Part shown: piece after piece, positions 87-6,789 of the stretch
Position numbering within the stretch: the stretch's first letter is position 1
Layout of the letters: each line of letters starts with the position of its first letter
Assembly (NCBI GenBank): GCA_963801165.1
Contig: CAWDDT010000008.1
Span: 1 to 20,996 of the forward strand
Length of the DNA stretch: 20,996 bases
Direction of reading: 5' to 3'
From: an uncultured bacterium
GTDB lineage: Bacteria > Actinomycetota > Acidimicrobiia > Spongiisociales > UBA5794
Position numbers and translations under genes: made by a program
The notes under the pieces: model-generated
The model's database searches: none
Told to the model about the DNA's origin: nothing
Seen by the model: only the letters and a program-made list of their open reading frames with translations

Positions 87-128
87 AAAAAACCTAGAGC
101 CCTCGGGCGATTTCCACCTGAGGGCTCT
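87..128 (-). terminator. Intrinsic terminator-like hairpin downstream of tRNA 3' remnant
   Basis: AGAGCCCTCGGG (96-107) / CCTGAGGGCTCT (117-128) inverted repeat; A6 tract at 87-92 gives a U-tract on the minus strand; abuts the tRNA 3' end remnant. Confidence 0.75.
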
Positions 129-143
129 TCGTAGCGGGGGTAG
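128..143 (-). repeat. 16-bp tRNA-fMet 3' end remnant; left target-site duplication of the IS481 shell
   Basis: TTCGTAGCGGGGGTAG is identical to 6744-6759 and is immediately followed by the TGT IS end. Confidence 0.85.
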
Positions 144-218
144 TGTCGTGTTTCAGAACATAGGAAAGGTATGTCGCGGGACATAGGAACATCGGCTACG
201 CCCTGCTTGGGCGGGTCG

Positions 219-702
219 ATGTCGAAGGCACGTCTTGTCATCATGTCGGTTGTTGTCGAGGGCCGTTCCCAGGCGGATACGGCCCTCCTCTACGCGGTCT
301 CACCCGGCTGGGTATCGAAGCTGGTGGTCCGCTACCGCCTGGATGGGGATGCCGCGTTCGAGCCCAAGTCGCGGCGTCCCAAGACCTTCTCGAATGCCCT
401 AGATCCGGCAACTGTCGAGTTGATCGTCGAGCTGCGCCAACGCCGTGCCGGCGACGGTCTCGATTCCGGGCCGCACACGATTGCATGGCATCTCGAAAAA
501 GATCATTCGCTGGTGGTATCGCCAGCAACGATCTGGCGGCATCTCAAAGCTGCGGGACTGGCCACACCGCAGCCGAGGAAGCGTCCCAAAGCACCGTATG
601 TCAGGTTCCAAGCCGACCTACCCAACGAAATGTGGCAATCTGATTTCACCCACTGGCGCCTCGAAGACGGGACTGACGTTGAGGTCCTCGCCTTCATCGA
701 CT
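219..702 (+). pseudogene. IS481-family transposase, N-terminal part (HTH plus start of DDE core), truncated
   Basis: MSKARLVIMSVVVEGRS, HTH, SRRPK, GPHTIAWHL, PNEMWQSDFTHWRL; similarity ends at VLAFID, where DDHSR would be expected. Confidence 0.9.
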
Positions 703-744
703 ACCGACACGTCGCCGCGCTCTGGCACCGGCTGATGGGCGGTC

Positions 745-975
745 TGGCCGGCAGTGGATCGATTGGCATTTGACCACGGGCAGCGATCCGGTCCCTGAGT
801 ACAAGCGGGCAATCGGAACGGTGCATCTGAAGGACAAGTTCACTCACGCCGGTAGCGACCGACCTGATCGCGGCGCCGATAGTTGCGGAGTGTCCCATCA
901 CACTCGAGGCATCGGTGACAGCCATCCATCCGTTCCAATCCCACGACGCACATCTGGCGGTGATCGGGATCGGAC
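745..975 (+). pseudogene. Flavin reductase-family fragment, frameshifted
   Basis: Across frames: AVDRLA/LTTGSDPVPEYK...DKFTHAG/TPVATDLIAAPIVAECPITLEASV. Confidence 0.6.
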
Positions 976-1218
976 AGCGACGATCTGCTCCTGCTCGTGA
1001 ACGGCGTACTCGTGGTGAAGGTCGACGGCGAGCAGCTTGCTGAGGTCGGGCCAGGTGCCGTGCTCGGTGAACGTGCGCTGCTGGAGGGTGGGACCCGAAC
1101 CGCAACGCTGCGAGCGGTGACGGAGTGCAAGGTCGCCGCAGTGCCGGCGGACCAGGTCGACCGCGACAGGCTCGGCGTCGGCGGCCCTTCCGGGCCAACA
1201 GCAGCCGTACTCGCGTGA
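976..1218 (+). pseudogene. Cyclic nucleotide-binding domain C-terminal fragment
   Basis: LLVNGVLVVKVDGEQLAEVGPGAVLGERALLEGGTRTATLRAVTEC has the GE..R phosphate-binding cassette; no N-terminus. Confidence 0.7.
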
Positions 1219-1232
1219 ATTGTCGCACCGGT

Positions 1233-1259
1233 TGTCGATTTCGATGCGGCCGTTCGTAG
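1233..1259 (+). promoter_or_regulatory. Putative ECF sigma promoter (ECF42-like) for first DHFR-like gene
   Basis: TGTCGATTTCGA-N6-CGTTCGTAG; the same motif and spacing occur at 2435-2461. Confidence 0.6.
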
Positions 1260-1304
1260 TAGGGATAGACAGCGCATTCGGCGCTGCGAGAAGGAAGTTT
1301 AAGT

Positions 1305-1871
1305 ATGGGAAAGCTCATTGTTACCGAGTTCGTGTCTCTGGATGGGGTGATGCAGGCCCCGGGTGGTGAGGAATTCAAGTACGAGGCTTGGACGTTCGAC
1401 TTCGATCGTGGCGAGGACGGCAACCAGTTCAAGCTCGACGAGATCCTGGAAGCGGATGCCCACTTGCTCGGCCGTGTGACCTACGAGAGCTTCGCTGGAG
1501 CCTGGCCCAGTCGTGAGGGCCCGTTCGCCGAGAGGCTGAACAAGGATCCGAAGTACGTCGTGTCGACCACGCTCAAGAACCCCGAATGGACAAACGTGAC
1601 AGTCCTGGACAGCGGCGACGCCACCGCCCAGGTGGCGAAACTGAAGCAGGAGATCGACGGCACGATCCTGCTCGCCGGTAGCCGGCGGCTGGTCCAGGAA
1701 CTCCTGGGCGCCGATCTGGTCGACCAGATCAACTTGATGGTCTTCCCGGTCATCCTGGGCACGGGCGACCGAATGTTCGGCGAGATGAACGAAAAGACGA
1801 CGTGGAAGCTCGTCGAGTCGCGGCAGGTTGGATCCGACGGCGTTTTGGTGCAGAGCTACCGGCGCGCCTGA
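1305..1871 (+). CDS. Dihydrofolate reductase/RibD C-terminal family protein
   Basis: VSLDGVMQAPGG, LLGRVTYESFA, KYVVSTTL, GSRRLVQEL, LVDQINLMVFPVILGTG. Confidence 0.92.
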   Translation: MGKLIVTEFVSLDGVMQAPGGEEFKYEAWTFDFDRGEDGNQFKLDEILEADAHLLGRVTYESFAGAWPSREGPFAERLNKDPKYVVSTTLKNPEWTNVTVLDSGDATAQVAKLKQEIDGTILLAGSRRLVQELLGADLVDQINLMVFPVILGTGDRMFGEMNEKTTWKLVESRQVGSDGVLVQSYRRA

Positions 1872-4989: not shown

Positions 4990-5119
4990 AGAGAGTCGAT
5001 GGCGCAGATCGGCCAGTAGCCCCGACAGACAGCGAAAACGTCCCGACCCAGACCGCGTTTTCGTCCCGCCGCCAACCGGCGGCAAGGTCTGCAACGCGAC
5101 TAGAACCATCCTTTGAGAA

Positions 5120-5641
5120 GTCGAGGTGACCGCATCTCCCCTCGTTGTCTCTTCCTGGTCAACCTCGGCCGGATCCAAGCCGACGGGTACCCACGCAAGG
5201 AGCTGCTCGTGATCCGAGTGGTCGGGTTGGCCAAGACCCCCAGCAGCTCGGCATAGCCTCCGGGACCGTCGCAGTCTTCGGGTGGGCAGGCTCGCCGGAC
5301 GGAATACTTGGCACCTTGCTCGAGGGCACTGATCGCGCCCCTAGCACGTCATGCTCCCAGCCGTCCCCGAAGTCGTAGTCCCACCGCATCTTCATCCCCA
5401 CATCGGGCAGCACATCTCCGAGCCGGACCCGGTTCTCGTCGAGATCGTCCGATGGCCACTCCGGCTCGGGGGTCCCGTACCGCCTTCGGTCCACCTCAAA
5501 GACGTGAAAGTGGCCACCCAGGCTCCCCATCGCTGCCTCCAACTCCCCTAGAGCTAGATGGGACTCGACGACGATCCGGCGCCACGCCGGCGGCTTCACC
5601 TGACGAAGCGTCACCCTCAACTGATGAACGGTCTCAGTCAT
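5120..5641 (-). pseudogene. Plasmid pRiA4b ORF-3 family protein, frameshifted
   Basis: QLRVTLRQVKPPAWRRIVV, HFHVF, YDFGDGWEH, then in another frame RACPPEDCDGPGGYAELL. Confidence 0.85.
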
Positions 5642-5659
5642 GACGGCTGTTCGGCGATC

Positions 5660-5900
5660 GTGTGCGCAAACGTCGAGCTCGCCGGTGACGGCGGTCGTGA
5701 TCAGCGCCTGCCGATGTTCGGCAAGTAGGTCGATCTGCTTCGCGAGCATCAATGTTGCGCGCTGACAGATTGAAGTCAGCTCATCGAGAATCCGGCGAGT
5801 CGAATCTGGACCTCGATGTCGTGCACAGGGATGGTGACTCGGCCCAGGTCCCAGATTCGCCAGGAGCGATGTCCATACGATTCGATCGATCTCGCACGCG
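5660..5900 (-). pseudogene. hsdS: Type I RM specificity subunit C-terminal fragment
   Basis: TIPVHDIEVQIRLAGF / LDE...QIDLLAEHRQALITTAVTGELDV across a frameshift matches the HsdS conserved C-terminal helix; 5' boundary approximate. Confidence 0.8.
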
Positions 5901-6035
5901 AGCCGCTCCCTGAGCCACGACGTGACCTCATCACAAGCCGTCCCCTCGCCAAGCGTGGCACTCCTGGGAGGGCCTCGCCGATGCAATGGACGTCCTCGCT
6001 CGGTTGCGGGTCGAGTGGCGTCCGGAGCTGCCGGC

Positions 6036-6467
6036 TCAAGCTGGTTCCAGCACGACGACCGGAATGGGTCGGTCTGTGACTGCCGCGTAACCGGCATAGT
6101 CGTCGGCAGCCTCAACGGCCTTTTGCCAGATCTCCTCGAACTCGGCACCGGCCGCGAAACGGGCCCTCACATCACTCCAGGTACCGTCGCGTCGGATGCG
6201 GGCGCCGGGGTGGGCACGGAGGTTTTTCACCCACGCCGGATCATAGGAAGCACCGGCGTTGGATCCGATGACCGCCGGTCCGCGAGCAGTACTCACGTAC
6301 CAGATCAGAATGCCTCTCTCCTGACCCGACCTGTGGCCGATCGTCACGAGCTCCAGGACCGGCATACCGCTGACACGCCGACCCAACCGCCCACCGGAGA
6401 GGTTCCAAACGAGCTTGTGGAGCCTCCACTGCATTCTCAGAAACCGACGCGACGAAGTACTGCTCAT
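6036..6467 (-). CDS. F420-dependent nitroreductase (Ddn/DUF385 family)
   Basis: PVLELVTIGHRSGQER, GSNAGA..DPAWVKNLRAHP, YAGYA..TDRPIPVVVLEP; start set at ATG 6467. Confidence 0.9.
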   Translation of the reverse strand: MSSTSSRRFLRMQWRLHKLVWNLSGGRLGRRVSGMPVLELVTIGHRSGQERGILIWYVSTARGPAVIGSNAGASYDPAWVKNLRAHPGARIRRDGTWSDVRARFAAGAEFEEIWQKAVEAADDYAGYAAVTDRPIPVVVLEPA

Positions 6468-6514
6468 GTAGACACGGTAGCGCCCCGCAACCCGCGGCGG
6501 CCTCAATCAACTGT

Positions 6515-6578
6515 GACCACTGGCCACCAACGGGCAGCAACATGGCCGCCACTAGGCAGAATCTCATGGCCGCCGACA
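6515..6578 (-). mobile_element. Orphan IS21-family terminal repeat region
   Basis: Minus strand TGTCGGCGGCCATGAGATTCTGCCTAGTGGCGGCCATGTTGCTGCCCGTTGGTGGCCA: TGT tip with reiterated GGCGGCCA..CTGCC units; no istA/istB. Confidence 0.7.
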
Positions 6579-6710
6579 GCGCAAGTGCTCATCAACGAAC
6601 TCGACATCCACATCATCAGCACCCAAACCGGCGAGATCATCCGCCACCTCACCCTCAACCCCAGCATCGATTACCAACCCCAACCACACAACAAAACCCC
6701 CAAACCATAG
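6579..6710 (+). pseudogene. IS481-family transposase C-terminal fragment
   Basis: VLINELDIHIISTQTGEIIRHLTLNPSIDYQP, typical tail of actinobacterial IS481 transposases; followed by the right IR. Confidence 0.8.
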
Positions 6711-6743
6711 GTTCAAGGGTTTCCAATGTCTCGCGACATCACA

Positions 6744-6789
6744 TTCGTAGCGGGGGTAGGATTTGAACCTACGACCTTCGGGTTATGAG
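6744..6789 (-). repeat. tRNA-fMet 3' half (att core of integrated element), not a full tRNA
   Basis: Minus strand CTCATAACCCGAAGGTCGTAGGTTCAAATCCTACCCCCGCTA: CAT anticodon loop, T arm, acceptor 3' strand; D arm and 5' strand absent. Confidence 0.92.

Follow-up and report, generated by a model that had tools for sequence, protein, structure and literature searches.

The 3' ends of tRNA genes form a niche that has so far been linked to tyrosine integrases, casposons, Tn7-like elements, and eukaryotic retroelements. Casposons target tRNA-Pro and generate duplications of 14–15 bp. Tn7-like elements, type V-K CRISPR-associated transposons (CASTs), and the eukaryotic elements Ty3 and TRE5 use the neighborhood of tRNA genes as safe havens; they need accessory selectors (TniQ, a guide RNA, or RNA polymerase III factors) and insert beside the gene. 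Among insertion sequences (ISs), the duplications of the IS481 family range from 2 to 15 bp according to ISfinder, as quoted in PMC10045372, and some members, ISMac4 and ISA0963-1 being named, are reported there with duplications of about 15 bp (Kojima, 2023; PMC10045372). The ISAjo2/ISAba32 group of the IS1202 family is described as targeting dif/pdif sites (PMC10132070), and one IS1202 subgroup as making 15–17 bp duplications (bioRxiv 10.1101/2022.12.17.520857). Here we describe an interrupted IS481-family element of 6.6 kb that lies at a displaced 3' half of a tRNA-Met(CAT) gene, together with the target pattern of its relatives. The element was found in contig CAWDDT010000008.1 of assembly GCA_963801165.1, from an uncultured bacterium of the lineage UBA5794 (Actinomycetota; Acidimicrobiia; Spongiisociales). 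The stretch analyzed, called the window below, is this entire contig of 20,996 nt, which is contig C8 of a genome of 13 contigs and 4.55 Mb that is 98% complete.

A left IS481-family piece of 561 nt beginning with TGT (144–704, plus strand) and a right piece of 158 nt ending with ACA (6586–6743, plus strand) are bracketed in the window by two copies of the 16-mer TTCGTAGCGGGGGTAG, at 128–143 and 6744–6759. Read directly, the two copies are identical at 16 of 16 positions, and they abut the TGT at 144 and the ACA that ends at 6743. The two pieces are separated by 5,881 bp of mosaic DNA (705–6585) standing in place of about 565 bp of the IS core. Owing to this insert, the copy measures 6,600 bp, outside the IS481 length of about 1.0–1.3 kb. 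When 144–6759 is excised, the hairpin on the left is united with the tRNA 3' half at 6744–6789. An earlier reading of the letters, made by a model without database searches (the sequence-only reading), had proposed a TTCGTAGCGGGGGTAG-TGT...ACA-TTCGTAGCGGGGGTAG shell whose deletion rebuilds a hairpin and a tRNA 3' half, with N- and C-terminal transposase pieces at the two ends and 5.9 kb between them. This anatomy was borne out by direct reading and by tblastn, which placed transposase residues 1–161 and 351–391 at the two ends. We consider, with a probability of about 0.6, that the locus arose from an ordinary IS insertion into a displaced tRNA-Met(CAT) 3' half and was later invaded and gutted. 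The copy is now a non-autonomous fossil.

The left piece, delimited by alignment, tblastn, Pfam, and NCBIfam, comprises the TGT terminal repeat and a truncated transposase gene. It corresponds to IS nucleotides 1–561 and is 78% identical to the intact element L002. The transposase start codon ATG lies at 219, and residues 1–161 are encoded at 219–701 (tblastn with an intact relative as query). This part carries the helix-turn-helix (HTH) domains (Pfam HTH_32 and HTH_28) and the first catalytic D, and is followed by 23 foreign codons and a stop at 773. Because it is truncated, it scores just 98.8 bits, as a partial match, on the NCBIfam IS481 model. Alignment places the left breakpoint between about 704 and 725. 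The right piece contains the last 41 transposase codons (residues 351–391, at 6585–6707 by tblastn), the stop codon at 6708–6710, a hairpin at 6693–6723, and the terminal repeat ending in ACA. It is 89–91% identical to four intact elements. The catalytic triad is incomplete in this copy: in the alignment, read by eye, the D of the motif SDFTH is kept, and the residues of LTDNG (D) and KVERF (E) are gone. The element's terminal inverted repeats are imperfect, agreeing at 14–26 of 30 terminal positions among the relatives.

The four intact relatives are each 1,282 bp long from TGT to ACA. One of them, L002 (the same record as L008), comes from a genome of the same genus and encodes a transposase of 391 aa, and the other three are on metagenome contigs (L129, L130, and L131). 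The intact transposase of L002/L008 reaches 251 bits on the NCBIfam IS481 model NF033577 (cutoff 224) and contains the Pfam domains rve and rve_3 in addition to HTH domains; on the ISNCY_2 model it scores 98.7 bits, below the cutoff of 250. On these sequence grounds we assign the element to the IS481 family. Compared with one another, and excepting the near-identical pair L002/L130, the intact copies share 81–82% identity over the left 561 nt and 92–96% over the right 158 nt, and the pieces in the window share 78–81% and 89–91%, respectively, with all four. The distance to each intact relative is thus about the same for both pieces, which fits one element on its own branch and argues against the possibility, allowed for in the sequence-only reading, that the two ends belong to different IS481 elements.

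The DNA flanking the shell includes tRNA-gene sequence. Parsed by us against the intact tRNA-Met(CAT) gene on contig C11 of the same genome, the 16-mer at 128–143 can be divided into trailer (4 nt), discriminator, acceptor strand (7 nt), and part of the T stem (4 nt). The displaced 3' half at 6744–6789 (minus strand) runs from the anticodon loop to the 3' end and includes 5 nt of trailer; its positions 6749–6789 are identical at 41 of 41 nt to the tRNA-Met(CAT) gene called by ARAGORN at C11 c[4064-4138]. On the other side of the shell, a terminator-like hairpin with a U-run occupies 83–128 of the minus strand (arms 96–104 and 120–128). The minus-strand fold of 60–143 has a free energy of -40.6 kcal/mol and a z score of -3.76. 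This hairpin probably served at first as the terminator downstream of the tRNA-Met(CAT) gene and of a converging GGDEF-EAL gene. The first 1,164 nt of the window are the reverse complement of C3:1–1164 (99.9% identity, one mismatch), so that contigs C8 and C3 overlap by their ends and the left flank goes on into C3, where the GGDEF-EAL-type open reading frame (ORF) lies (translation read by eye, without a family search). No locus orthologous to the left flank was found in 14 genomes of the same genus.

Three direct copies of the tRNA 3' half are present in the window, at 6744–6789, 18014–18059 (89%), and 19319–19364 (72%), and no complete tRNA gene was called by ARAGORN within it. The intact tRNA-Met(CAT) gene sits on the separate contig C11. 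Judged from its sequence, the copy at 6744–6789 is best described as an island-junction remnant of attachment-site (att) type that served as the insertion target. Ahead of the second remnant, in the stretch 17942–18059, stand a hairpin (17983–18011) and three GGTAGAA-type direct repeats that resemble integrase arm sites. With its three remnants, the third of them more decayed, and the arm-like repeats, the region looks like old islands arranged in tandem at a single tRNA gene. The ORF at 15663–16379 looks like an integrase N-terminus by eye, but Pfam gives no match at an E value of 0.01. The description of the target as a tRNA att site in the sequence-only reading is therefore reasonable with respect to the 3'-half remnants, and the evidence for an integrase is weak.

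Since the window is a metagenome assembly, its junctions were checked independently with Logan contigs from four runs of four studies, aligned to positions 1–7300. The outer left junction (143/144) is spanned by contigs of runs X1 and X2, and the inner left junction (704/705) by contigs of runs X1, X2, and X3. The inner right junction (6578–6586) and the outer right junction (6743/6744) are both spanned in runs X2 and X3. A Joint Genome Institute (JGI) metagenome contig (L132) corresponds to 5249–7300 at 99.4% identity. Contig cover is absent from bin 1465–1708 in run X2 and from bins 489–976 in run X5. As the junctions are spanned by independent metagenome contigs, the 6.6-kb structure is real and not an assembly artefact or chimera. 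In bin 6589–6832, the summed contig depth rises from below 10 to 27–272 in all four runs. Many organisms of those samples share the conserved tRNA-Met 3' half, and several loose contig ends in this bin show other hairpin-plus-tRNA junctions.

A total of 80 loci encoding relatives of the transposase at 45–100% identity were retrieved. Their hosts are Acidimicrobiia, many Actinomycetes, Solirubrobacterales, and a few metagenome-assembled genomes of Chloroflexota and Dormibacterota. An ends-finder detected exact repeats of 13–16 bp abutting the TGT/ACA ends in 30 of the 80 loci, with lengths of 15 bp in 17 loci, 16 bp in nine, 14 bp in three, and 13 bp in one. The ends-finder favored repeats, so a separate control was made in which the left flank of one locus was paired with the right flank of another. 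A repeat of at least 14 nt with at most one mismatch was present in 33 of the 63 loci having both flanks, as against 6 of the 311 mismatched pairs. The sequence-only reading had called a 16-bp duplication long for IS481. This is mildly true, 16 bp being one base above the quoted upper bound of the family, but 15–16 bp is the norm in the clade, the relatives with 15 bp (17 loci) stand at that bound, and about 15 bp is already on record.

The duplications, the adjacency of tRNA genes, and a T-loop motif strongly support the proposal that tRNA 3' ends are the target of the IS. A complete tRNA gene on the opposite strand is present at 44 of the 67 loci in which 150 nt or more follow the stop codon. 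The adjoining tRNA 3' end lies 23–118 nt beyond the transposase stop, and the tRNAs have many different anticodons. A T-loop-like motif 13–17 nt past a CA occurs in 56 of these 67 loci, compared with 27 of 2,702 control windows from the same loci. Where the flanks were read, the duplication always has its inner edge between tRNA positions 61 and 62, beside the T loop, and extends from the T stem, of which it takes four bases, through the acceptor strand and the discriminator into the trailer (3–4 bases). The transposase gene is always opposite in strand to the tRNA. Because the duplication covers the acceptor end, the tRNA gene is rebuilt whole on the right side of the element, whose right end replaces the downstream flank of the tRNA. 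Loci without matching repeats (e.g., L003 and L008) have tRNA-end 15–16-mers on both sides, derived from different tRNAs, which is what recombination between copies would give. The exceptions are L036 and L087, with 16-bp duplications at sites that are not clearly tRNA genes. The element at L036 (about 2400–5000) is 2,579 bp long and consists of two transposase genes in tandem (an IS dimer) within one 16-bp duplication at a non-tRNA site.

Some relatives are found at tRNA-Met sequences. In G119, a relic of the clade abuts an intact tRNA-Met gene bearing the identical 16-mer. The intact IS of L131 adjoins another tRNA-Met 3'-half remnant, and that of L129 lies behind a homologue of the left flank of the window, with the same 16-mer. 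A bare tRNA 3' half suffices as a target, as in the window, where it is 46 nt long. Taking the target pattern as a whole, we regard it as an even call that this widespread clade consists of dedicated single-ORF tRNA-gene integrators. Such elements would recognize the T-arm DNA of almost any tRNA gene, cut at 61/62 and 15–16 bp downstream, insert in one orientation, and rebuild the 3' end, with protein as the sole determinant.

Several loci of the clade have more complex arrangements. In L010, L012, L015, L048, L065, L076, and L077, an IS end is followed by 15–16 nt and then by another IS end. Tandem IS arrays of this kind would be expected if the rebuilt tRNA gene were struck a second time. 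In L018, L034, L055, and L083, two to three head-to-tail 15-mer tRNA ends stand directly left of the IS; these stacked 15-mers may be footprints of earlier insertions that were lost with both duplication copies kept. Partial right ends of the clade, 39–186 nt long, were also found in genomes of the family (L108, L109, and L112–L119). Seven of these ten adjoin complete tRNA genes or tRNA-like 3' ends, two (L117 and L118) do not, and L119 is at a contig end. It seems that the right end survives longer than other parts of the element, perhaps since deletions cannot run into the tRNA.

The interior of the shell was characterized with Pfam, a repeat search, and comparison with relatives. From left to right, it contains a truncated cNMP-binding domain (997–1218), two RibD_C genes (1305–1871 and 2541–3122), a pseudogene fragment that corresponds to about the last 45 codons of a Fic gene and is broken by an internal stop (about 3198–3341, plus strand), an ORF without family assignment (3263–3679, minus strand), an AAA_14/DUF4143 ATPase gene (3634–4917, minus strand), a tandem repeat of 3 x 23 bp (4925–4993), a PRiA4_ORF3 protein gene (5159–6148, minus strand), and a gene for an F420H2-dependent quinone reductase (6036–6506, minus strand). 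The 23-bp repeats stand directly upstream of the DUF4143 ATPase gene and may be an operator or an iteron-like array. Pieces of the interior match separate loci among the 133 genomes of the family, including its own, and are never found together or between IS ends; in its own genome they lack close paralogues. A Pfam scan of nine interior ORFs in 144–6743 found no integrase family, and a tRNA fragment, a T-loop remnant, or an additional IS481 end is likewise absent from 705–6585.

A stretch of 140 nt within 3198–3341 is conserved at 73–79% identity in many genomes of the family and is the C-terminus of the Fic gene. Rfam gave no family at gathering thresholds in the window and none in 3050–3500, where this stretch lies, at an E value of 1. 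In L097, a full Fic gene lies about 400 nt from a tRNA-end-like sequence, recognized by eye and without an ARAGORN call.

Next to the right IS481 piece, the terminal inverted repeat of an IS21-family element is preserved as a relic (6503–6578, minus strand), with its terminus at 6578 facing that piece. It holds internal repeats of the GGCGGCCA-type motif, and its terminus and internal repeats recur in three other genomes (L103, L104, and L105). It is identified as an IS21-family end because the copy in L103 stands upstream of decayed ORFs that match Mu-transpos_C_2 (IstA-like) and IstB_IS21. Another copy of the motif lies at C9:420486–420570 (L098:3986–4069), in an intergenic position upstream of an ORF that resembles an extracytoplasmic function (ECF) sigma factor by eye. 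No transposase is beside this copy, which could be a further relic or else a small derived repeat. From its composition, the interior of the shell looks like the product of nested insertion with later deletion and rearrangement, and not like a tidy passenger module.

No second copy of the 6.6-kb unit was found in its own genome, in the other 132 genomes of the family, or among four metagenome matches to the right end, one of which is this locus itself. A 37-mer from the left end has no exact match (0) in metagenome contigs. The expectation that the same cargo would recur between the same ends at another locus was likewise disappointed in the 133 family genomes and the metagenome right-end matches. 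A tblastn search of its own genome gave no intact close transposase, just relics on contigs C5 and C7 and rve proteins with at most 31% identity; although this genome is 98% complete, IS copies can drop out of assemblies. The relic on C7 is a right end of the clade adjoining a tRNA-like 3' half, and the C5 relic, a left end, follows a hairpin and a 16-mer that resembles a tRNA end. A special breakpoint shared by the window and the C7 relic (residues 351 and 354) was considered and rejected, as the 11 other right-end matches in genomes of the family start anywhere from IS position 1026 to 1243. No passenger genes are present in the 80 related loci.

The history that we favor would begin with a 1,282-bp IS481-family element inserting into a displaced chromosomal tRNA-Met(CAT) 3' half, where one or more islands integrated at that gene would have had their far junction. 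The transposase complex would read T-arm DNA and cut beside the T arm on one strand and 15–16 bp downstream on the other, and a staggered cut 16 bp wide would give the 16-bp duplication. Later, IS nucleotides of about 562–1126 would have been lost, that is, transposase residues 162–350, which hold the second and third members (D and E) of the DDE triad. The 5.9 kb of unrelated DNA would have been gained by nested insertion and rearrangement, at least one event involving an IS21-family element whose terminus still abuts the right IS481 piece. Anatomy, junctions, and the target pattern across the clade are shown by the data, and we infer the order of these events and the recognition of T-arm DNA by the transposase.

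The sequence-only reading had left two alternatives, a non-autonomous cargo transposon and an IS that was later invaded, and the second fits better. Invasion is indicated by the IS21 end relic, the Fic fragment with its internal stop, the truncated cNMP-binding domain, and the patchwork character of the interior. For the whole 6.6-kb unit to be a cargo transposon, the shell would have to have formed elsewhere and been moved by a transposase in trans. Such a unit would account for the two well-kept termini and the perfect 16/16 duplication around the whole, and there are intact relatives that are 78–91% identical to the pieces (the metagenome contigs L129–L131 and L002 from the same genus). There is also a sign of an unoccupied site: one X2 contig passes position 143 and continues with 14 letters that match the tRNA fragment after 6759. 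Being a single contig with a short tail, it counts as a hint only, and it may stem from a related strain that was never hit. Neither a second unit or cargo junction in the genomes and metagenome matches searched nor an intact close transposase in the 98%-complete genome was found, the cargo is partly pseudogene debris with an IS21 end relic, and cargo is absent from all 80 related loci, where the sole long element (L036) is the tandem IS dimer. We therefore judge a cargo transposon unlikely. More doubtful still is a history in which two IS copies entered the same 16-mer in successive tRNA 3'-half remnants and deletions left the remains of an island as apparent cargo. A site-specific IS can indeed yield identical flanks twice, three tRNA 3'-half remnants are present in the window, and tandem IS-15mer-IS arrays exist at other loci. 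But the stretch between the pieces lacks the tRNA fragment, T-loop remnant, or extra IS481 end that were looked for, as well as an integrase family among the nine ORFs scanned. At least two insertions and two deletions would be required, which by chance left exactly complementary pieces, and these pieces are equally distant from the intact relatives.

An assembly chimera is highly improbable, as is the possibility that the 16-bp repeats are core sites of a tyrosine-recombinase island. The contig is metagenome-assembled and its first 1,164 nt overlap the end of another contig, and the 16-mer does belong to a tRNA repeat of att type. All junctions, however, are spanned in two or three independent runs and by the JGI contig. 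The repeats were rejected as integrase core sites because they abut exact TGT/ACA termini, a geometry that the relatives share at many tRNAs; moreover, no integrase family is encoded in 144–6743 by the nine ORFs scanned. Several points weigh against an ordinary insertion followed by invasion. Replacing 565 bp by 5,881 bp needs several events, none of which is directly observed. The partner of the IS21 end was looked for in the window and not found, leaving just one end; 7 nt (6579–6585) between the IS21 terminus and the IS481 homology are without explanation; and the left inner junction bears no recognizable mark. The well-kept termini and perfect duplication equally fit a unit that moved recently, and the empty-site form in X2 could mean a recent gain or loss of the whole unit. 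Finally, the IS is site-specific, so identical flanks alone do not prove a single insertion.

The transposases of the clade are longer than the family model. NF033577 (284 positions) covers residues 8–296, and the clade transposase of about 390 aa has about 95 extra C-terminal residues, in which an AlphaFold model (47 sequences, mean pLDDT 84.8) predicts a six-strand beta domain at residues 315–373. Pfam detected nothing in the C-terminal 96–100 aa of three transposases. In a Foldseek search with the model, IS21 IstA aligned over about 380 columns and ShCAST TnsB and MuA over roughly 440–450, and retroviral integrases aligned over shorter stretches. The extra beta domain of this model is a candidate for T-arm recognition or target capture.

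On the tRNA strand, the right end of the element forms a perfect hairpin of 13–17 pairs about 18 nt inside the terminus, followed by a U-rich tract. It is present in 10 of 12 elements of the subgroup nearest the window when these are folded singly, and the stem sequences vary between elements with pairing retained. The hairpin and U-rich tract could stop read-through from the tRNA gene into the element. A simple terminator scan did not call the right-end hairpin in the window. Consensus folding of 29 right ends gave 0 pairs, and that of an 11-sequence subgroup gave a terminal 8-pair stem alone; the second hairpin was missed because MAFFT put it out of register.

The closest described elements are the IS481 members with about 15-bp duplications, which resemble the clade in their TGT...ACA ends, single rve/DDE transposase, N-terminal HTH, and duplication length. 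The clade differs from them in its one fixed tRNA position and orientation; the word "tRNA" is absent from the portion of the PMC10045372 text consulted. The IS1202 family has a transposase of the rve type related to that of the clade and, like it, TGT ends, insertion beside a conserved chromosomal site with specificity of site and orientation, and discrete duplication classes, whereas its dif group targets Xer sites and makes 5-bp duplications. Islands and prophages with tyrosine integrases likewise settle safely in the 3' part of a tRNA gene, which is made whole again by a duplicate of its 3' end. They do so by site-specific recombination with an element-borne attP, in contrast to the staggered DDE cut expected for the clade, in which just 15–16 bp are duplicated. 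Casposons, described at the 3' end of a tRNA gene (PMC5137440), resemble the clade. They have a strong tRNA 3'-end preference and an about 15-bp duplication. Their enzyme, the Cas1 casposase, is unrelated, and they are large self-synthesizing elements that use one particular tRNA. Tn7-like elements and CASTs share with the clade a related DDE/rve fold, ShCAST TnsB and IS21 IstA being among the top Foldseek matches, and, like the retroelements, the tRNA-gene safe haven; unlike all of these, the clade has a single ORF and cuts inside the T stem. No account of tRNA-end targeting by IS481-family elements was found in the literature searched, the member entries of ISfinder and TnPedia and the supplements lying outside that search, and the novelty of this targeting is provisional.

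The shell in the window is itself a fossil of a common type and of little significance, and the valuable part is the tRNA targeting of its relatives. These have a one-protein DDE transposase with near-absolute specificity of site and orientation for tRNA 3' ends. If true, a DDE transposase would here be directed to a conserved safe-haven site naturally and by protein alone. For genome annotation, relics of 15–16 nt of tRNA ends, solo IS ends, and tandem IS arrays are to be expected beside the tRNA genes of Actinomycetota, and these should not be taken for integrase att sites. The clade is also a tractable model of target choice by rve transposases, with cultured hosts among the matches in Nonomuraea, Streptomyces, Microbacterium, and Aurantimicrobium.

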